From IMG/VR virus record IMGVR_UViG_3300037419_002114: a stretch of DNA of 64,000 nucleotides, one strand, 5' to 3'. Under the pieces are notes generated by a model. That model searched no databases. It saw only the letters and a program-made list of their open reading frames with translations, and had not been told where the DNA came from. The DNA comes from an uncultured virus (IMG/VR IMGVR_UViG_3300037419_002114). Taxonomy: Duplodnaviria > Heunggongvirae > Uroviricota > Caudoviricetes. Positions 1,888 to 12,179 of the stretch are shown here, piece by piece (position 1 is the first letter of the stretch; each line of letters starts with the position of its first letter). Both the position numbers and the translations under genes were made by a program.

Positions 1888-3801
1888 TTAAATGAATAGA
1901 TTCATCGGAGTCGTTTGCATATCCGTATCATTTGGATTTAGGTCCGGTGGCGTTTCGCTTGTTCCTTTCGATTGACCGCCAACACCTTCTTGCTTATGAC
2001 CTGCAACTTCCGGTGTTTCGTTATATAACTGTTCTCCTTCTTTTTCGGGAACAGTTTTACCGCTACCGCTCAGAGAACCTGTAAGTCCGTTAATATCAGT
2101 AGAGGTCGCTCCATCTCCGCTTCCGCCTGCATTGCCGCCATTCACTGGCATAGTTCCAAACATCCGCTTATCATCTTCGACAATGCGTTCGATCATTTCG
2201 GATGCATGGTCATCATCCACGCCATCAAGACGCTTAATAGCCGTGCGTTGGTCGATGAGTTTCGAATTGATACGAAGAGCCATAATTTCAACTTGCTCAC
2301 GGTCGTTTCGAGGAATCCCATCTGAGAATATAACTTTTGGATACACTGGCTCATACTGTTCAAACGTTGGAACGCCTTCATTGGAATAGTTCTCAAGCAT
2401 CTGCGAGTAGTACACCACATCCGACACCGTTTTCTGCAGGTTCATCGAAATACGACTGATTAAAGCAGAAACAGGGGCATATCGCATTTTAATGCCTGTT
2501 GAATCGGTATGGCTTGAGCCACCACCACTTTGCTGAGCATTCGTTAAACTTGTACCGAATAGCCATTGCGGAAGTTGTGATTCGGTGAAGATAAAGCCTA
2601 GAATCATTTCAAGTTGCTTAAAGGCAGCGTCCAGTTTACCATCCCATGTCACGTATTGAAGAGGTGGATCTTCCGGATTTTGAGAAATATACGCACCACC
2701 CAAGCGAACCGTTTCAGAGTTTCCATCTAAATGTGGTCCGGTCAAGATTGGGTCAGAGTGTTTGTGCAAAATCCAGTCAAGTTCAGTCAAACGGTCAGAA
2801 GCGGCAATAAGCATATCAGCAATCTTTTCGATAGCACCAATTCCCTGCCACGTATGTTCAACTGTTTTATATCCAAAGTGGAATACAAGCGGAACATCTA
2901 CGCCAGTGGCAACCACGTCACCATCTTTGCGACCAGTTGGAATTTGTTCCATGATTTCAAACACAGGAATGTTTACGCCATAAATATCATTGACCATCTT
3001 CGGACGAAGCAAGTATCGTTCGTAAATCACGTATCCAGGAACGTGTTTTTCCACGTAAAGAAGCGGAACTTGTACGCCACGACCGTATAGATACGAATCA
3101 TATTCCATCGAATATTCGGTTCGATCCGTTTCAAGCCATTCCACGTACGCAATATTTACGCCTTTAAATTCAGTCGTAGACCCACGTTTCATTTCCGGAA
3201 ACACATACGAAGGATTCACCGATTCAATCACAAGCTCCGGTTTTGCGTTTTTCGGAATTTGAATGTTCGCATCCGGATACAGACGCTGAAGTTTATAAAG
3301 TTCTGAGTAGTCTTGGCGATAGTTATAAAACGCTTTAACGAACGAATCCCCTTTAATCGCTGCGTTGACGACCATATTAAAGATAAGTTGATACAAGTTG
3401 TTATCTTCAACAATACGGTTAATGGCCATTTGTTGAGCAGACTTAGGGTCAAGACCACTTTCGAAAATAGGAAGTTGGCTCATCAAAAGTTCAGCAGGTT
3501 TGCTGGCAATAACATCCGCTAAGTTTACCGATAAATAAAGTGTATCTAATTGATCGTGATAAGGCGTATCTTTTAACAGTTCAGATGCACGCTTAAATAC
3601 ATCTTTCTTTCTCGCTTCGAAAATACGCATCAAATATTCATATCGTGCAATTCGTTCGATATGCTGATGCGGAGGAAACGTTTCGCCTGGACGAATTAAC
3701 GTTTGATTGACGATTGTATCTACGTCAGTCGGTTCACCAGTGAAGGTGTAGTTAAAATCATTTGGTAAATTCCAAGAATTAGGATTATAGTTCTGACTCA
3801 T
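1888..3801 (-). CDS. Portal protein (SPP1 gp6-like)
   Basis: 637 aa, YVTWDGKL and DQRTAIKRLDG segments, acidic disordered tail, position in packaging module. Confidence 0.85.
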   Translation of the reverse strand: MSQNYNPNSWNLPNDFNYTFTGEPTDVDTIVNQTLIRPGETFPPHQHIERIARYEYLMRIFEARKKDVFKRASELLKDTPYHDQLDTLYLSVNLADVIASKPAELLMSQLPIFESGLDPKSAQQMAINRIVEDNNLYQLIFNMVVNAAIKGDSFVKAFYNYRQDYSELYKLQRLYPDANIQIPKNAKPELVIESVNPSYVFPEMKRGSTTEFKGVNIAYVEWLETDRTEYSMEYDSYLYGRGVQVPLLYVEKHVPGYVIYERYLLRPKMVNDIYGVNIPVFEIMEQIPTGRKDGDVVATGVDVPLVFHFGYKTVEHTWQGIGAIEKIADMLIAASDRLTELDWILHKHSDPILTGPHLDGNSETVRLGGAYISQNPEDPPLQYVTWDGKLDAAFKQLEMILGFIFTESQLPQWLFGTSLTNAQQSGGGSSHTDSTGIKMRYAPVSALISRISMNLQKTVSDVVYYSQMLENYSNEGVPTFEQYEPVYPKVIFSDGIPRNDREQVEIMALRINSKLIDQRTAIKRLDGVDDDHASEMIERIVEDDKRMFGTMPVNGGNAGGSGDGATSTDINGLTGSLSGSGKTVPEKEGEQLYNETPEVAGHKQEGVGGQSKGTSETPPDLNPNDTDMQTTPMNLFI

Positions 3802-4228
3802 CTATTAGCACCTCATCAGATAAGAGGGATTCCAACTCCTCCATCTCTTTTTTGATATCATCATCCGATCGCACGGTTTCAACCGTTTCTACAACATGTG
3901 TCGTCTTAATTAAGTTACGAAGTTTTGCATAGGTTTCGATTGGCTTAACAGACTCTTGTGTGCGAACCAAATGAATCAACTTTGCATATACTTCTGTTTC
4001 AAAAGATGCCAAGAACTCTTGAGCAATTAAGTTTTGATACTGAATAAATGCCTTTTGTTTCTTCCAACGATGAACAGTTTGTCTTGTCACATGGCAACGG
4101 TCTGCAATTTCTTCAATCGTCATACCTGCCACATCCGGATCAAGTGATAATTTTGATTCAACAAGAAGCAGTGCTGCCAGTTGTTGATCTTCCGGAAGTT
4201 TTGCTTGTAACTCTTTTTTAGTAGCCAT
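3785..4228 (-). CDS. HTH protein, probable terminase small subunit
   Basis: TIEEIADRCHVTRQTVHRW helix-turn-helix; overlaps portal start. Confidence 0.65.
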   Translation of the reverse strand: MATKKELQAKLPEDQQLAALLLVESKLSLDPDVAGMTIEEIADRCHVTRQTVHRWKKQKAFIQYQNLIAQEFLASFETEVYAKLIHLVRTQESVKPIETYAKLRNLIKTTHVVETVETVRSDDDIKKEMEELESLLSDEVLIDESEL

Positions 4229-4319: not shown

Positions 4320-5420
4320 TTATTTGCGTGAAGCGTTCTCTAAGAAGGATGAACCAGGAATTTTTTTCAATTCAATCTCAAAAATAGGAGAAAACAAATC
4401 GATCAAAATATCTTGTACGCTATCTGTATCGTTATTACGAAAGAAAGATTCTTCAACTGAAATCAAGCGATAATTGTGCGAGCGATACAACGCTTCTTTT
4501 TCTTTACGCTTTTGATTATACGTGAGAGCAAGATCAGATTTTCCATCAATCGGAAAACCCCAAATTTCACATTGAACGATTTCTCCGTTTGAAAGATGAA
4601 AGGTAAAGTCACTTCGTTTTCGATGGTTTGGTTTTGAAAAAGGTTTTTGTTCACGCTTATACGAAATACCATTTGCAAGAAGAAAGTTTGCCACAAAACA
4701 TTCATATCGAGATGAGTTATAAAAGCCAGAAGCATCTTTATAGTTTTCTTTTTCAACATTCATCTTTCGTTTGATACCGTACACACCACCAAGACGTTTT
4801 AACGAAGTAGAACCGATTTTTAGTACCGTTAAAAACTCTTCTTTCGTTGGAAAGTAACCGAATATATCACGAAACCAATTCACTCGTTTTTCAACGTTAG
4901 AAAAATCATCAAAGTAGTTATTAGGTGCTCGACCCATCACTTCGTCATAATCATAGCCAAGTTTAATAATTGCTTCTGCTAAATCAAGCCTACGATTCTT
5001 AAAGGCATGTCCAGCATGAGTTTCTAAAAATAGTCCAACATGACCATGTTCTTCAATATATTCTTTTAATGCATTCAAACGATTTTCTTCGAACGACCAA
5101 TAAATATTATCGCCTTCTTGAAGCTCACCGTTCGAAAGACGATATTGAGCGAGTTCTTTTTGGCGAAGATGACCACATTCCTTGCAGGAATAGTCATAAA
5201 TAGGATGTTCGTTCATTGCTCTACGAACTTTATGATACATTCGACTTGAATCTTTGTTGCAATACTTGCACTTCACATCGATGTAAATATTTGAACTTGG
5301 CGGTAGATCCTCCACTTTGACTTCGATATATTTACCTTTATGGTAAGGATAACCAAGGAGCAGGAGATTTTCCTTAACCGTTTCGGTACATTTCATTGGA
5401 ACAGTTTTTGATACAATCAT
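4320..5420 (-). CDS. Free-standing putative homing endonuclease (Zn-ribbon N-terminus, PD-(D/E)XK-like C-terminus)
   Basis: CKYC..CKEC pairs; C-terminal SRYE..VANFL..RE..RSDF..CEIWG nuclease-like pattern. Confidence 0.6.
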   Translation of the reverse strand: MIVSKTVPMKCTETVKENLLLLGYPYHKGKYIEVKVEDLPPSSNIYIDVKCKYCNKDSSRMYHKVRRAMNEHPIYDYSCKECGHLRQKELAQYRLSNGELQEGDNIYWSFEENRLNALKEYIEEHGHVGLFLETHAGHAFKNRRLDLAEAIIKLGYDYDEVMGRAPNNYFDDFSNVEKRVNWFRDIFGYFPTKEEFLTVLKIGSTSLKRLGGVYGIKRKMNVEKENYKDASGFYNSSRYECFVANFLLANGISYKREQKPFSKPNHRKRSDFTFHLSNGEIVQCEIWGFPIDGKSDLALTYNQKRKEKEALYRSHNYRLISVEESFFRNNDTDSVQDILIDLFSPIFEIELKKIPGSSFLENASRK

Positions 5421-6445
5421 TCAATCACCTTCTTTCGAAGGGAATCGATCTCTGAGATTTTATCAAGGACTTGTTGGAAGCACTTTTGAACATCCTCTTT
5501 GATATCAGTTTCCCAAAAGCGAAATAGAATCGTACCATTTTTTTTCAAAAACTTATTTTTTTGCAAATCCTTTTTCTGAGTTTTCAACTGACTATCATTC
5601 AATACAGGAAAACGAGTAGGATTTCCATGCCAGTAATCACCATCACATTCAATAGCAATATCATATTCCTCTAAATAAAAATCGATAGAATATCGATCTA
5701 GGTAAATATATTGAGGAATGAATTTGATACTATTCGAAATAAGTTCGTTTTTAATAGCAAGTTCAATACTGGTTTCAAAATATTTAGCATTAGTCATCGA
5801 AACAACAAAGGCACAAGAAGAACTACAACAAGGAACTTTCAAACCTTGATTGAACTCTTCTACTTGGTAAGGATGATATTCGGTATCTACTTTACCACAA
5901 ACAGTACAAGGTAATTTAACCTTACCACCTTTCCATTGAGGGTGTTTATCACCGGAAATATCTCTAAAGAAACTAGGGATTCCGCCAGAAGAAATTAACT
6001 CGCTTTTTTGTTTTATCATGCATTCTTTCGAACAAAGAAATGTTTGGTTTCTATTTATTTTACCATTAACATAATATTTTTCTTTTTCGAAAGAGTCACC
6101 ACAATATCCACATACAAGTGTAACCATCTTCTTTTTACGTGCTTGACTGATATTCACCATAGCAGGTATTTCATGAAATGCTATCCATTTACGTATGGTT
6201 TTTTTATCAATGCCACCACACAGTTTTTGAATCTCTTTTAAAGAAAGTTTTTCAACAACTCTTTTTTGAAACAACCAATCTTTATCTTCATAGTAAGGTC
6301 GAGGTTTGAGTATATTTAGTTTTCGTAATCTACGCATTACCGTAGAATGATTAACATTAAGAAGTTTAGCAACTTCATTCATCGACAATCGTTCAACAAC
6401 AATTTTTTGATGCAACCATTGTTCATCAATAGGAATTTTGTTCAT
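5417..6445 (-). CDS. Free-standing Vsr/DUF559-like (EDxHD-type) endonuclease
   Basis: N-terminal HTH repeats, CxxC fingers, C-terminal TSIE..PQY..SIDF..IECDGDYWHG; own extended -10 TGTGTATAAT near 6473-6483. Confidence 0.75.
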   Translation of the reverse strand: MNKIPIDEQWLHQKIVVERLSMNEVAKLLNVNHSTVMRRLRKLNILKPRPYYEDKDWLFQKRVVEKLSLKEIQKLCGGIDKKTIRKWIAFHEIPAMVNISQARKKKMVTLVCGYCGDSFEKEKYYVNGKINRNQTFLCSKECMIKQKSELISSGGIPSFFRDISGDKHPQWKGGKVKLPCTVCGKVDTEYHPYQVEEFNQGLKVPCCSSSCAFVVSMTNAKYFETSIELAIKNELISNSIKFIPQYIYLDRYSIDFYLEEYDIAIECDGDYWHGNPTRFPVLNDSQLKTQKKDLQKNKFLKKNGTILFRFWETDIKEDVQKCFQQVLDKISEIDSLRKKVIE

Positions 6446-6515
6446 ATAGGAATCATCCCCCTTTCATACCATAATTATACACAAAACAGAAAAAAAGGGG
6501 GAAAATTGTGCAATC

Positions 6516-8841
6516 TTACATCCAACCTTTTTTCGGCTGAATGCTAGACCTTGATTGTTTCAAACCACTAATCGCCATTTCAACACTATCCGGACCATCG
6601 TCATGTGTCGATGCTTTCGCACCAGTACCGAGTCCGAACTGTTCGAATTGATTGATAAGCAAACGATGATTCGGATTGAAACTAAGTTCACCGTTTTCAA
6701 CCATAGGATGCAACATCTCGATACGAGTTTGCTTTCGAGAACGGTTTTGAATCTTTTTCACACGCAAAAACGAAGGATAACCGACTTTCATCAGTTCCTT
6801 CTTTAACGTATCTGTTGCAAACTCTTGCATCATGTTAGCTTCACTACTTACCACCATTGGATCCCATTTTAAAACGAGTTGGATGATATCTTTGATGAAC
6901 TCATCCGGGTGCACACGTTTTAAGTACGAATCAGCGATGAAAAACTTTTTCGTTTTTTTGTCTTGTGCAACGACAGCCACACTTGAATAATCGCCTCGCT
7001 CTTTTCCTGAAGCCCAATCTATTCCAAAAGATATATTGTATTGATCGTGAGGAAATTGCATAAATGGGTCATGATAATTAAAAAGATCGCTATTAAATAG
7101 CATATCTTCTTTATTATATGGAATATTCAAAAACTCGGTAGAGAACGCATGGCTACCGATACTCAACTTCTCAATCATAAGTTTATGATACGGAAATCGT
7201 GAAGGCCACAACACGACCCAATCATCCATATCGTGACGATGTGCTCGGTAAAAATCCATCGCTGCTTTCTCGTTTGGCGATTCCATTTTGCTCGTGGCGT
7301 TTTCGTACTCTTGCATTTCTTCGTCAGTTGGCACATATTCTTTATAGATACGACAGAACTCGTTCCACAAATCTTCACGCGTAGGCTCTTCGATAATAGC
7401 AGGAAACTTATTTCGAATAAAGTCTGCACGTTCTGTAATCACATAATTAAGCAAAGATTCCGGATGAGTCATGGTCCCCATGAAGATTGTTGCACATTTG
7501 GTAACATCTCTTGCCATTTCGTTAGCGTAGTGGCTCTTTATCCACCACCTACAACTTTTCCATCGTTGTAGATCAGACTATCTCTTCACCCTCTATAAAA
7601 GTAGGATGGAACGCACTCGTGGAGATTTCTTCGGTTCTCGAATACTCTCTCTAGTCGTTACACCTTTCTGCTATTCCTAACAGACTTGGCTCGGTATTGC
7701 CCAATCATGGAGGGTTTCACCGAATTCACGTTCTTCATTTATAGAATTACTTCTATAACGCCCAAAGTTTAGGATACATTTCCATGTTAAACCAATCTTT
7801 GTTTTTCTGACGAAGTTCTGCAGTATTATTACTATCTTTTGATTCTAAGTCCACTGTGTTCATGTTGGTTCGCTACGCCAACACCGTGCAAAGCACTGCT
7901 ATATATCGCTATATAGTTCAGACTATATCTTTATCCTAAAAGGATATCCTCCATTTCGAGTCGCTTGACCCTACGCCTTACGGCTAGTCGTTGAACGTTC
8001 AATAACAGGAAAACCTAACTCACTTATGATTTATTACGCTAACAAATGTTTCAGACGATGCAACCTGTTATCGCTTCGCTGCTGATTGTCTACGGGAGAG
8101 TTCCCAGCAATTAAAAGGATTTTACTTGAACAACTTAAACTTATCCAAGAGAATGAGATCCGGACGCTGAGAACCATTACGGATACCTCGAATCTGTTTA
8201 CCCAAAGATGAACAGGCCATCATTGCACCTGTTGTGGTGATAAACATATCCTGTGCGTCTTTTTCATTCTTATTGTTATCTTCATGCAGGAGGATGCCAA
8301 AATCCTCACGAAGTTTTTTATTAAACTTTAACTGACCTGCTACCCACTTTAAGAATTTCATCGAACCTGGCAATGTTTCCGAACAAATCAAAATCATGGT
8401 TCGTTTTCGGTAGACAAGTTCACGAGTCGGAAAACTATTTGATAGGAATGCCGATTTTGCATGACCACGACTTGCACTCCAACAAACGTTTGCCGTTTGA
8501 TTATAGTTTGATACATTATCGAGAATCTTCGATAGCTTAGCGTGAAACTCCGGTGCTTTCGTTACATCAACATCACGGTCCGGAACGAGATTATCAAGGT
8601 TTCCAGGGTTATCATGCTCGCTAAAATACGTATAGAAAAAGTATAAGTGATCGACTTCTGCTCGATGTACGCGAAGAAGTTTCGTCAATTCCGCTTTATC
8701 ATCTTCGAACATATCATAGTGATAATCCGTTGCTTTACCGGACTTAATCAAATCCATCAATTTCTTCAGCTTCTCACGTAGAAGTTTAATTCTCTCTTCT
8801 CTCTCATCTCGATCAAGCCACTTTCCGTTTACATACGCCAT
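6516..8841 (-). CDS. terL: Terminase large subunit, three exons (8841-8143, 7851-7771, 7514-6516; 592 aa spliced)
   Basis: Walker A-like SRGHAKS; splicing restores Walker B RPDLILLD|DLE and MYP|ARDVTKCATIFMGT; C-terminal nuclease GID..GDYS..HDDGPD. Confidence 0.92.
7515..7770 (-). ncRNA. Group I intron 2 in terL (256 nt, no ORF)
   Basis: Exon ends CCT, intron ends ...GAAATG; core GAATTCGGTGAAA, AATACCGAG, AACGACTAG, GAGATAGTCTG; removal keeps the frame. Confidence 0.92.
7852..8142 (-). ncRNA. Group I intron 1 in terL (291 nt, no ORF)
   Basis: Exon ends in U (GAT), intron ends in G; P1 CTTGGAT/GTTCAAG with U-G at splice site; P10 TTTAAGTT/GACTTAGA; core AATTGCTGGGAA, AATCAGCAG, AACGACTA, AAGATATAGTCT. 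Confidence 0.93.
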
Positions 8842-8873
8842 AAAACCACCTCCAAAAAAGATTTAGAATTTTC

Positions 8874-8901
8874 TTGCGTGTAAGACATAATGTGGTATAG
8901 T
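8874..8901 (+). promoter_or_regulatory. SigA-type promoter of the recombinase gene containing a recombinase half-site
   Basis: TTGCGT-16-TATAGT with extended TG; spacer GTAAGACATAATGT recurs exactly at 25207-25220. Confidence 0.65.
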
Positions 8902-8925
8902 TATTACAGAAGGGAGTGATGATAT

Positions 8926-9777
8926 ATGTCAGATAATAAAATCACAGTTACTACAGAAGAGTTAGAAAGAATGATACAAGAGCGTGTTGAAGCATTAGAA
9001 AAAGAAAAGAAAGCAAATGGTAAAAAAGATAAATATAAGAAAAATCCAAAGCGTGCTGGTATGCAAGAAGTTTCCCCATTTACTCAAGAGCAAATCAAAA
9101 AGATTTTAGACGATTATGAGAAAAAAATAAAAAAGGCTAAAAAAGAATCTGAACGTCAACAATTACATAGAAACCGTTTAATGTTTTTGATCGGATGCAA
9201 CGTTGCTCTTCGTATTCAAGATTTATTAAGTTTAAAAATTGGTGACGTTCGTTACGGTCGTATTAAAATCCGAGAAATGAAAAATAGCAAAAACAACAAC
9301 ATCAAAATTAACGAACAAATCATGGAAGTTATCGCACAAGTAGAAGGTGATGACTCGGACTTCCTTTTCACCTCACGTGAAACCATATCCTTAGCAAAAA
9401 TTCCACAAAAAGGTTCGAAGTATTACAAAGAAGAAGGAAATCCTACATATGAAGAAATGTGCTCGATGATTGGTCGTCCTCGTCCACTTTCTCGCCAGCA
9501 AGCCCATAAAATCGTTTCAAAGGCAGCAGAAGATATCGGTCTAGTCAAGCGTGCTCCAAAGCAAGCAGGCCAACGTCAAGGTGTTATCATCTACGGAAAC
9601 TACGGATGCCACTCGCTGCGTAAAAGTTATGGAATGGCATTATATGAAGCAGGCGTAGATGTTATCGTCATTAAAGAGTTATTCAATCACTCAGACCACA
9701 AAATTACATACCGTTATATCGGACTTGCCCAACGAGATATGGACAAAGTTCGTGAAGGTATTGCAGTAGGAATCTAA
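8926..9777 (+). CDS. Tyrosine recombinase (Xer/resolvase-like, catalytic domain only)
   Basis: ALRIQDLL (R), HSLRK (HxxR), FNHS (H), TYRYIG (Y); short, no evident arm-binding domain. Confidence 0.9.
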   Translation: MSDNKITVTTEELERMIQERVEALEKEKKANGKKDKYKKNPKRAGMQEVSPFTQEQIKKILDDYEKKIKKAKKESERQQLHRNRLMFLIGCNVALRIQDLLSLKIGDVRYGRIKIREMKNSKNNNIKINEQIMEVIAQVEGDDSDFLFTSRETISLAKIPQKGSKYYKEEGNPTYEEMCSMIGRPRPLSRQQAHKIVSKAAEDIGLVKRAPKQAGQRQGVIIYGNYGCHSLRKSYGMALYEAGVDVIVIKELFNHSDHKITYRYIGLAQRDMDKVREGIAVGI

Positions 9778-9785
9778 AAAGAGGA

Positions 9786-10223
9786 TTAAAACCCTCTTTT
9801 TATTTTTGTGATTCGATAGTCCTTCGCTTGAATCATCGTCATTAAATAAATCAATCCATCGTATGCTTTTTCAGAATCACCACACGTATACAAATCGATG
9901 CTGGCGTATCCGTTATGTTCTGGATACGTATGAATCGATAAGTGCGATTCAGATAAAAGTGCCAAAACGGTTGCTCCTTGCGGTTCGAACTCGTGAGATG
10001 ACGAATCCAATAGCGTCATTTCGGCACGATCAATGCACGTCTTAAATGACTGCAGTAAATACGTTGCATCAGAGAGAATATTAAGGTCGCACTCAATCGC
10101 TTCTACGATAAAGTGCGTACCTACTTCGAACTTCATTTGTCCAAACGAAAAATGAGTGTCTATTTTAAATTGTCCACCATCGTCAAATACAATCTTATTC
10201 ATCTTCTTCTTCATCATCCTCAA
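9786..10223 (-). CDS. speD: S-adenosylmethionine decarboxylase proenzyme
   Basis: HEFEPQGAT..LLSESHLSIHTYPE..SIDLYTCG signature with ES self-cleavage site; exact start uncertain. Confidence 0.9.
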   Translation of the reverse strand: MRMMKKKMNKIVFDDGGQFKIDTHFSFGQMKFEVGTHFIVEAIECDLNILSDATYLLQSFKTCIDRAEMTLLDSSSHEFEPQGATVLALLSESHLSIHTYPEHNGYASIDLYTCGDSEKAYDGLIYLMTMIQAKDYRITKIKRGF

Positions 10224-10461
10224 ACGTTAGATTTTCTAAAAACAATTCCTCCATAAGTTGCTCTTCCATATCGATGACAAATATCTTTTTCTCAAGTTCC
10301 TTAATTTCTTCTTCGATATCGTAGAGATAGTCAAGTCGTTCTTGCATTTCATTCATCGTTTTTTGCACTTGGACGTTTGCAATATCTTTGGTGTCATATA
10401 ATTGTGCAAGAATGTTCATATATTCTTGCTTTTTTTCCAATGGACTCTTCCACATAATCAT
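10195..10461 (-). CDS. Hypothetical acidic coiled-coil protein
   Basis: Overlaps both neighbours in operon style; GGAGG RBS. Confidence 0.6.
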   Translation of the reverse strand: MIMWKSPLEKKQEYMNILAQLYDTKDIANVQVQKTMNEMQERLDYLYDIEEEIKELEKKIFVIDMEEQLMEELFLENLTFEDDEEEDE

Positions 10462-12179
10462 TCACCCTCCACAAGATACGGTTTTAATTGAAGTGCAAGT
10501 GCTTTAATGACGTTTGTACTAACCGCATTGCCAGCCATTTTATAAATTTGTGCATCAGAAATACCGTTAGCACGCAAAATATCAGTCACTTGATCCGGAA
10601 AGCCTTGCAGACGCATGCATTCTTTCGGAGTAAGTCTACGAATGCGATATTCGGGAGATTCCACAACATGGGTTCTTCGACCTTTGCCATAATCACCAAT
10701 ACTTGTACCCTTTGCATAATTAGCATCTATACAATGAGAGATTCCTTCTCCATCTTCGCTGAATTGTTTATTTTGAACAACCTCAAGCAACTGTTGTTCC
10801 AAATTCTGCGTTGCGGTAACCGTTCCAACTAATTCATCATCTCTCACCGCTGGAACTTTCCCTTGGAATGGGTCGTTGCCGTTCCTTCTCGCTTCTTTTC
10901 CTTCTTCGGTGCGTGCACGAGTAAGCGGATAGACTACCATTGAATCCTTTTGCACACTTGTAATGGTATTAGACAAATTATCTTCACGTACTTCAAGTTG
11001 TTGTTCTTGCCCCATATAGGAACGAGTTCGCAAAGAGCAACCTGTTTCCTCAGCAATCATATCCCAGTTATGCTTATCAGAAAGGGATTCTTTGCCACCA
11101 GTACGCACAGTCCTTGTAATGTCATTCTTTGTTGGAATCCAATTTGGAAGAAGAACGCTTGGAATGTGTCCGCCGCCAGCAGAAGTACGAATAGTTGGTG
11201 CAATATCAAATACACGTGGTTCTTCCTCGCCAAATCCACCGTAAATATTATGAACAATTTTTGGTTCTTCCACGATATGCACTCGTCTTGAACGATTTTT
11301 ATCGAGGTCAGACGGACCAATGCCTTTATGATAACTCGCATCCACGTTCGGACTTAAACCGTTGCCTTCAAAACTCATAGACGAAAGGGAATCGTCATCT
11401 GTATCGATTTGGAGCTTGTCTTTATTTAGTCGAGCGATTAAATTATCGGTTTTTTCTTTTGATAAGTAGTATTTTTCATCAACAGATGGCTCTAGCACGT
11501 CACGCAGGCGTTTATTCACGCTCTTTTGTGCAGGCCAGTCGAAGTTAAAGGTTTTCAAAATTCCTTGCTGAATATATTTCTTCTTCGCTTTCGAGATAAC
11601 GTCTGTTTTGCCTTTTTCAACAGTCCAAGGCTCATGCTCTTTAAACTCCGGGTCGTATTTGCAAACAAAAAAGACCCTCTCGCGAGATTGCGGAAGATCA
11701 AAATACTTCGAATTAAGTAAGGAAAAATCCACTAAATACCCACACTCGTTAATTGCAAACAAAATCGTTTCAAGTGTATTTCCTTTATCATGGTTAATCA
11801 GACCTTTTACGTTTTCAAGCAGAAGCATCTTCGGTTTTTTGTGACTCGCAATCCGCATAATCTCAAAGAATAATGTGCCACGTGTTTCGGTCATGCCTAA
11901 ACGCTTACCGGCCTGTGAAAATGGTTGACATGGGAAACCTGCCACGAGTAAATCGTGATCTGGAATGTCATATTCATCTACCTGTGTAATGTCACCATGC
12001 GGAGTCATCCCATGAATCAATTCATACCCTTTAGAAGCATACTTATCAATTTCACTGGCGAATACCATTTGAAGTTCTTCGCCAAATGCCATTGAAAGAC
12101 CCATTTCGAACCCACCCAACCCAGAAAAAAGAGAAGCGACCTTAATTAGTCGCTTCTTGTCGTTCATATTCTCAATCAT
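10458..12179 (-). CDS. DNA cytosine-C5 methyltransferase with very long variable region (probably multispecific)
   Basis: LFSGLGG, GFPCQPFS, ENVKG, QSRERVF, RRLTPKECMRLQGF, YKMAGNAV motifs. Confidence 0.93.
   Translation of the reverse strand: MIENMNDKKRLIKVASLFSGLGGFEMGLSMAFGEELQMVFASEIDKYASKGYELIHGMTPHGDITQVDEYDIPDHDLLVAGFPCQPFSQAGKRLGMTETRGTLFFEIMRIASHKKPKMLLLENVKGLINHDKGNTLETILFAINECGYLVDFSLLNSKYFDLPQSRERVFFVCKYDPEFKEHEPWTVEKGKTDVISKAKKKYIQQGILKTFNFDWPAQKSVNKRLRDVLEPSVDEKYYLSKEKTDNLIARLNKDKLQIDTDDDSLSSMSFEGNGLSPNVDASYHKGIGPSDLDKNRSRRVHIVEEPKIVHNIYGGFGEEEPRVFDIAPTIRTSAGGGHIPSVLLPNWIPTKNDITRTVRTGGKESLSDKHNWDMIAEETGCSLRTRSYMGQEQQLEVREDNLSNTITSVQKDSMVVYPLTRARTEEGKEARRNGNDPFQGKVPAVRDDELVGTVTATQNLEQQLLEVVQNKQFSEDGEGISHCIDANYAKGTSIGDYGKGRRTHVVESPEYRIRRLTPKECMRLQGFPDQVTDILRANGISDAQIYKMAGNAVSTNVIKALALQLKPYLVEGE

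Follow-up and report, generated by a model that had tools for sequence, protein, structure and literature searches.

How does the virus of IMG/VR record IMGVR_UViG_3300037419_002114 encode an intact large terminase subunit (TerL), when a mechanical list of open reading frames (ORFs) presents its terL gene in fragments? The gene was found on the minus strand, at 8841..6516 of a stretch of 64,000 nucleotides (nt), which was analysed at its full length and is called the window here. The genome in the window is that of a KLEB27-1-like phage of the Bacillus/Neobacillus type, about 64 kilobases (kb) long and assembled from soil DNA. A near-identity DNA search with 6400-9000 against 50,697 phage records returned zero matches. 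In our study, the terL gene of this soil phage was confirmed to consist of three exons, split by two small group I introns that are predicted to be self-splicing. We consider it highly probable that a single terL gene is interrupted by two independent, ORF-less, IA-like group I introns lying 81 nt apart, and that it is spliced to give a TerL of 592 amino acids (aa).

Exon 1 (8841..8143, 699 nt, 233 codons) was found to encode the N-terminal ATPase part of TerL, up to the first aspartate of the Walker B-like motif LILLD|D. Intron 1 (8142..7852, 291 nt) follows U8143 and has G7852 as its last base. Exon 2, the micro-exon (7851..7771, 81 nt, 27 codons), encodes the peptide DLESKDSNNTAELRQKNKDWFNMEMYP and ends at T7771. 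Intron 2 (7770..7515, 256 nt) follows U7771 and ends with G7515. Exon 3 (7514..6516, 999 nt, 332 codons and the stop codon) contained the MGT motif as well as the RNaseH-like nuclease domain. All of these features lie on the minus strand. When the exons were joined (699 + 81 + 999 nt, all in phase 0), 547 nt were removed and the coding sequence was read as 592 aa with zero internal stops. The 592-aa frame, the borders at 7515 and 8142 and the loss of 547 nt, all of which had been given in the initial annotation of this DNA, were reproduced in this way, and so was its 27-codon micro-exon between the introns.

Exon 1 ends in ...RPDLILLD at T8143, and reading on in the same frame gave six codons (KFKLFK*) before a stop; the read-through from exon 2 into intron 2 gave five codons (KLWAL*) before a stop. 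The mechanical ORF list misses the micro-exon and shows two false genes, as had been remarked in the initial annotation. One is a 239-aa ORF (8122..8841), which ends in ...RPDLILLDKFKLFK*, and the other is a 333-aa ORF (6516..7517), which begins with MARDVTKCATIFMGT; the micro-exon DLESKDSNNTAELRQKNKDWFNMEMYP is buried in a 36-aa ORF (7753..7863).

Two parts mark a TerL, an ATPase at the N-terminus, with a Walker B-like motif, and an RNaseH-like nuclease at the C-terminus, and both were found in the joined gene. Exon 1 matched the PHROG family phrog_38 (terminase large subunit) at profile positions 213-409 (E 4.9e-27), and exon 3 matched it at positions 443-713 (E 3e-48); exon 3 also had a Pfam Terminase_6C match (E 6.1e-10). 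The gap left in the phrog_38 profile is as large as the micro-exon and thus agrees with the junctions. Over its full length, the 592-aa TerL was 36-62% identical to uninterrupted relatives. In the conserved hhhhDD(L)E motif, which reads LILLD|DLE here, intron 1 was found between the two Asp codons. Eight intronless homologues read LVLLDDLE or ILDDLE at the Walker B-like site, with the DD intact in all eight, and the proposal that intron 1 splits the acidic pair was borne out.

The intronless TerL of Bacillus phage vB_BauS_KLEB27-1 was compared with the window by tblastn, and exactly three high-scoring segment pairs with contiguous query coordinates were found. Residues 1-233 matched 8841-8143 (66% identity), residues 234-260 matched 7851-7771 (70% identity, E 2e-6) and residues 261-588 matched 7514-6519. 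The 81-nt exon was thus found alone, and no second terL copy was detected in the window by this search. The spliced TerL was also aligned with the eight intronless TerLs (from Bacillus, Sporosarcina, Paenibacillus and Clostridium phages), and the alignment was gap-free at both junctions; the micro-exon peptide and the hhhhDDLE motif were kept in 8/8, none of these homologues lacking the peptide. The closest intronless relative (L012) reads ...LLLLDDLESIEANNTAELRKKNKNWFNAEMYPARDVT... and the micro-exon peptide is conserved in it. Near each intron, every combination of a 5' site behind a U with a 3' site behind a G that keeps the frame and creates no stop was ranked with two reference proteins. 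The proposed pair ranked first of 70 for intron 1 and first of 171 for intron 2 with both references, in keeping with the rule, put forward at the outset, of a U before each intron and a G at its end.

Alleles that differ in their introns were found in contigs from soil and rhizosphere DNA runs of different studies. A 1604-nt soil contig in run X9 was without exactly 7515..7770, with 50 and 612 nt flanking the join, and a contig in run X5 was also without exactly 7515..7770, with 30 nt on one side. In these intron-2-less contigs, which are DNA, 7514 was joined to 7772 with one substituted base between, and the proline codon was CCA and not CCU. The X9 contig retained intron 1, and no allele in which intron 1 alone is missing was seen among the close relatives. 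The junctions are thus supported by four independent lines of evidence, namely the tblastn matches, the protein alignment, the ranking of splice pairs and the soil alleles. The intron borders, the conserved protein restored at them and a presence/absence polymorphism at the DNA level were observed at this locus.

Both inserts were found to be group I introns. Rfam was scanned over both strands of the full 64-kb window, and RF00028 was matched over its full model (1-253) with a score of 79.8 bits for intron 1 (7899-8219, minus strand, E = 1.2e-18) and 73.6 bits for intron 2 (7549-7781, minus strand, E = 8.8e-17), both above the gathering score of 50. RF00028 gave only these two matches in the window, and no other Rfam family was at or above its gathering score there. 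No ORF was found in the introns; over all frames of both strands, the longest stop-free stretches were 38 and 55 codons. These results agreed with the original description of two tandem, ORF-less group I introns, and neither intron contained an endonuclease gene, unlike mobile group I introns that encode their own homing endonuclease.

Both introns contained the U at the last exon position in the P1 wobble and the terminal G at the 3' end. P1 of intron 1 is a 9-base-pair (bp) hairpin with a U8143-G8131 wobble. The guide of intron 1 (8139..8125) pairs over 15 contiguous nt with the ligated exons (7 of exon 1 and 8 of exon 2; -15.0 kcal/mol), and P10 is formed by the 8 bp with the start of exon 2. 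P1 of intron 2 contained the U7771-G7763 wobble and just 5 bp, 3 of them exon bp. The GACUA and UAGUC segments matched the RF00028 consensus in both introns, the P7 pseudoknot itself being unscored by the tools used. The minimum free energy (MFE) fold of intron 2 (z = -3.1) showed P2, P3, P4-P6, a P7.1/7.2-like insert, P8, P9 and P9.1. Intron 1 was found to contain an extra arm of about 72 nt in P6 (8072..8001). This arm was swapped for 8-9 nt in the X5 and X8 contigs and was also lacking in the homologues of phiNIT1 and Vibrio phage D181. The P6 arm at 8001-8072, as far as these comparisons go, is a dispensable peripheral insertion.

The two introns were not mutual copies, with 172 matched positions between their 291 and 256 nt, and their best database relatives differed. 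The core of intron 2 was 78% identical to the tape-measure intron of Bacillus phage Tavor_SA (Wbeta-like), and a relative of intron 1 was located in the ribonucleotide-reductase intron region of phiNIT1. Both introns contained an insert of 29-34 nt at the place of P7.1/P7.2 in the Rfam alignment, which folds into conserved helices. Subgroup IA was reportedly defined by Michel and Westhof through additional helices (P7.1/P7.2), placed after the 5' strand of P7 and before the 3' strand of P3. By this resemblance, the introns may be IA-like or IA2-like. Related introns of B. cereus phages were classed as IA1/IA2 in the available text of an earlier survey (PMC2504315), and the ribonucleotide-reductase introns of phiNIT1 are described as self-splicing in vitro in the accessible part of another (PMC11878797).

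Each ribozyme would fold after transcription, and its internal guide would pair with the last bases of the upstream exon to form P1, in which the U-G wobble marks the cleavage site. A guanosine would attack the 5' splice site, the freed exon would attack after the terminal G, and the exons would be ligated. The removal of 291 and 256 nt would leave an mRNA for the 592-aa TerL, with the Walker B-like LILLD-DLE intact and with the linker to the MGT motif. Unspliced RNA would give truncated products only, because in-frame stops are reached after 6 and 5 intron codons. Given the single terL copy in the window, packaging would depend on two splicing events, as was held in the initial annotation. 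The introns would be selfish, sporadic elements in the most conserved ATPase part, gained and lost independently among close relatives, probably by recombination or homing, and an endonuclease, if any is involved, would act in trans. The actual splicing, its efficiency and the movement of the introns are what we infer in this scheme.

A number of points weigh against splicing of both introns as proposed. In the Rfam alignment, P1 of intron 1 falls wrongly within exon 1 (match start 8219), and the P1 given above came from a separate pairing analysis. The MFE of intron 1 alone is ordinary (z = -1.46), and 8/100 shuffles folded equally well. P10 of intron 2 has about 3 bp with interior loops, and its exon binding was -4.5 kcal/mol, as against -14.2 in a homologous terL intron (L025, described below) and -15.0 in intron 1; a cofactor may therefore be required for intron 2, or its splicing may be inefficient. 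The core helices of both introns are supported by covariation, with compensatory double changes at 18/48 predicted pairs in intron 2 (aligned with the terL intron of L025 and the one in the Tavor_SA tape-measure gene) and at 13/41 in intron 1 (aligned with the phiNIT1 ribonucleotide-reductase intron and the Vibrio phage D181 intron), but each count is drawn from three sequences only. Ten runs holding this DNA were listed, of which 0/10 is on record as RNA, and splicing was not observed.

The weak P1 and P10 of intron 2 would also suit an alternative in which the introns are real and their splicing acts as a switch or gives alternative products, either by skipping of exon 2 or because intron 2 needs a host or phage factor, by which packaging would be tied to the state of the cell. 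Joining of the 5' site of intron 1 to the 3' site of intron 2 keeps the frame and gives 565 aa without a stop; this TerL, without the second Asp and the Glu of LILLD-DLE, would probably be ATPase-dead. In a recent study (PMC11878797), the exon-skipped form is reported to dominate among the in-vitro products of the SIOphi terL, as it had done in earlier work on Twort orf142, and splicing of some introns of Bastillevirinae took place in vivo only. The 8 bp between the guide of intron 1 and the start of exon 2, however, favour correct ligation over skipping, and relatives manage without intron 2 or without both introns (77/80 loci), so that an essential regulatory role is unneeded. We regard such a switch as unlikely.

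Decay of one or both introns, which would leave terL as a pseudogene in a defective or non-propagating element, is far less likely still. The weak P1/P10 of intron 2 could be read in this way, but all three exons were open and conserved, the core motifs fitted RF00028 with high posterior probability, and the U at -1 and the terminal G were present. The same or a near-identical intron-bearing allele was found in an independent IMG/VR contig and in several soil and rhizosphere runs of different studies, and the variation in relatives was compatible with the structure (a short loop for the P6 arm, paired indels round the P5 hairpin). The terL genes in general also host inteins, but inteins are excluded by the in-frame stops 6 and 5 codons into the inserts and the lack of a long ORF, and with covariance-model scores far over the threshold and the same arrangement in independent contigs (L009 and the X2 record), the chance that the interruptions are inteins, translational bypass or an assembly artefact is negligible.

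The distribution of the introns was studied in 80 IMG/VR loci encoding relatives of exon 1. The terL gene was uninterrupted in 77 loci, cut at the contig end in one and interrupted in two (L011, which is the L009 contig, and L025). The L009/L011 contig was 96% identical over terL and carried both introns. Between the window and L009, 8160..7399 was 100% identical, whereas some flanking exon blocks differed by 9-16%. The X2 record spanned the whole intron-bearing stretch with 10 differences.

Divergence between window 6516-8675 and L009 1-2160 was strongly patchy: the two were identical over 8160..7399 and 7030..7376 but had 44 differences in 6756..7029 and 26 in 8341..8626, a pattern that indicates recent recombination tracts inside terL. 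A co-conversion signature of homing was considered and rejected, since the exon blocks 7030-7376 and 8182-8340 were also identical; the pattern is one of general mosaicism and no proof of homing.

The terL gene of L025 contained a single group I intron of 258 nt (4682-4939, plus strand, 66.6 bits) after Pro227, and in this region L025 was identical to a Neobacillus niacini prophage (L216). The L025 intron site lies 18 nt upstream of the intron-1 site of the window and 33 codons upstream of its intron-2 site. The L025 intron was 73% identical to intron 2 of the window and contained the same UUGGGCG guide segment, but this guide fits its own exons far better than that of intron 2 does, with 12 contiguous bp and -14.2 kcal/mol.

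The X8 and X9 contigs contained about 280 extra nt replacing 7440-7464, in exon 3 just after the MGT motif. One part of the insert resembled the P6-P7 core of intron 2 and lay as far from the insert start as is expected of an intron. Judging from alignment tables only, the insert is probably a third group I intron in these relatives; if real, a second micro-exon of about 50-75 nt would result in the X8/X9 phages. At least three intron configurations thus coexist among close relatives, as is expected of independently mobile or losable elements.

The scan of metagenome contigs with exon 3 gave one distant relative only (L010, 26% identity). The core motif AATTCGGTGAA...AATACCGAGCCAAG was rejected as a lineage marker, as it occurred in at least 120 IMG/VR stretches, some of which by eye resembled tRNA-gene introns, and is generic to many group I introns. 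A narrower pattern of guide plus core was found in IMG/VR in the L009 and L025 contigs only. In genome contigs it was found in six stretches, one of which was a terL intron (Neobacillus niacini, L216); the remaining five did not match TerL, and four of them look like chance matches.

At least four intron sites would be in use in terL among these relatives, after Pro227 (L025/L216), after Asp233 and Pro260 (the window) and, probably, at about codons 277-285 (soil contigs). They could be read jointly, with the roughly 55 codons that begin at Walker B and end shortly behind the MGT motif as a landing strip for introns in this phage lineage, with hopping inside the gene and a regulated, ATPase-dead TerL skipped for exon 2, but we give this combination little weight and hold it to be improbable as a whole. 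Within it, one ORF-less lineage with a minimal GGG guide (UUGGGCG) may have settled after Pro-CCU codons at two sites. The hop may have proceeded via reverse splicing, or through trans-mobilisation by the neighbouring free-standing phrog_559-type endonuclease.

Several late genes of phages are known to contain more than one group I intron. Landthaler and Shub are said to have demonstrated experimentally, in 1999, three group I introns with exon skipping in orf142 of Staphylococcus phage Twort. As in Twort orf142, the window contained several ORF-less group I introns close together in a late gene, with short internal exons that allow skipping. Twort orf142, however, is a different gene (tail tube, in the accessible part of PMC11878797) in which splicing was demonstrated by experiment, whereas it is predicted here. 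Group I introns in terL were also reported in Twort-like staphylococcal phages (PMC5618024).

In Bacillus phages of the Bastillevirinae, among them SIOphi and phiAGATE, two or three introns per terL were described, and the TerL of SIOphi was reported with small internal exons and with splicing in vitro and in vivo, in the available text of that survey (NAR 2025; PMC11878797). The window resembles SIOphi and phiAGATE in having group I introns in the large terminase gene of a Bacillus-type phage. It differs from the Bastillevirinae, as far as the accessible part of the survey covers them, in its KLEB27-1-like genome of about 64 kb, compared with a herellevirus of about 150 kb, and in its TerL family, phrog_38 here and phrog_675 there (PMC11878797 Table 2). 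Further differences are that both introns of the window are ORF-less and that its phrog_559-like endonuclease gene stands on its own downstream of terL.

In B. cereus-group prophages, term-IVS1/IVS2 were described in terL and TMP-IVS1/2/3 in the tape-measure gene, where closely related introns with altered P1 were found at different sites, according to the available text of that survey (Tourasse & Kolsto 2008, PMC2504315). The window is like these prophages in that several introns are possible in one late gene. In that survey, however, a single intron was present per terL, with term-IVS1 encoding a homing endonuclease, and the host phages and sites differ from those of the window. A group I intron in the K1E terL was also described there (PMC2504315). 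The K1E intron was rejected as an intron of the same site, since its position is near codon 405 in a TerL of the T7-like kind and a homing endonuclease is encoded in it.

A terL gene with multiple introns is therefore already known in phages. Particular here is the uncultured KLEB27-1-like soil phage, with an ORF-less pair bracketing a 27-codon exon that starts in the Walker B-like motif and with natural presence/absence alleles. In practice, the case matters chiefly for annotation. Gene callers would give two 'terminase fragments' for such a locus and miss the 27-codon exon with half of the Walker B-like motif, and because of the missed micro-exon the phage would appear without an intact packaging ATPase. 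The tandem ORF-less introns, the natural alleles and the related intron at another terL site in the Neobacillus prophage are useful for studying the spread and retargeting of introns. The known picture, in which phage introns concentrate in the conserved motifs of DNA-metabolism and packaging genes, is unchanged.

An endonuclease gene (5417..6445, minus strand, 342 aa) was found directly downstream of terL. It contained HTH repeats (Pfam HTH_17) and a Vsr-like nuclease domain (Pfam DUF559) and matched phrog_559 'HNH endonuclease' (E 2.1e-18). It is followed by a 366-aa ORF (4320-5420, minus strand) of no clear family, with a weak zinc-ribbon hint, and by terS (3785-4228), which is separated from terL by these two genes. 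The terS gene comes directly after terL in most of the relatives having a terS match. The counterparts of both inserted genes in L009 differed in size (485 and 511 aa). The endonuclease gene was not detected by tblastn (E 1e-5) in 77/80 related loci. The genes at 5417-6445 and 4320-5420 look like free-standing homing-endonuclease cassettes.

The family phrog_559, with its Vsr-fold signature, was reported as the endonuclease family inside Bastillevirinae terL introns (accessible part of PMC11878797, Table 2), which makes a role in trans, i.e., collaborative homing, conceivable. In collaborative homing, as outlined in the available part of a review, ORF-less introns are served by free-standing endonucleases (Hausner et al. 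2014, PMC3984707). The window is like such systems in that ORF-less introns in a conserved phage gene adjoin the free-standing endonuclease gene at 5417-6445. It is unlike those described there in that homologues of its endonuclease also adjoin an intronless terL (L047, L071), and a strict link between endonuclease and introns was rejected on this account. The 342-aa endonuclease may nevertheless act in trans on the spread of the introns, with which it is associated here by proximity.

On the other side of terL, a gene of the tyrosine recombinase/integrase family was found at 8926-9777 (plus strand; Pfam Phage_integrase, E 3.3e-22), divergent from terL. Phages PK2, 268TH002 and Lietuvens have integrase-like genes at the corresponding place, which in Lietuvens adjoins the genome end. 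A C5 cytosine DNA methylase of 573 aa is encoded at 10458-12179 (minus strand), and its Pfam match fell in two stretches. This split suggests that the middle of the protein is long and variable and that the methylase is possibly multispecific. A S-adenosylmethionine decarboxylase-like gene (phrog_3125; 9786-10223, minus strand) was found adjoining the methylase.

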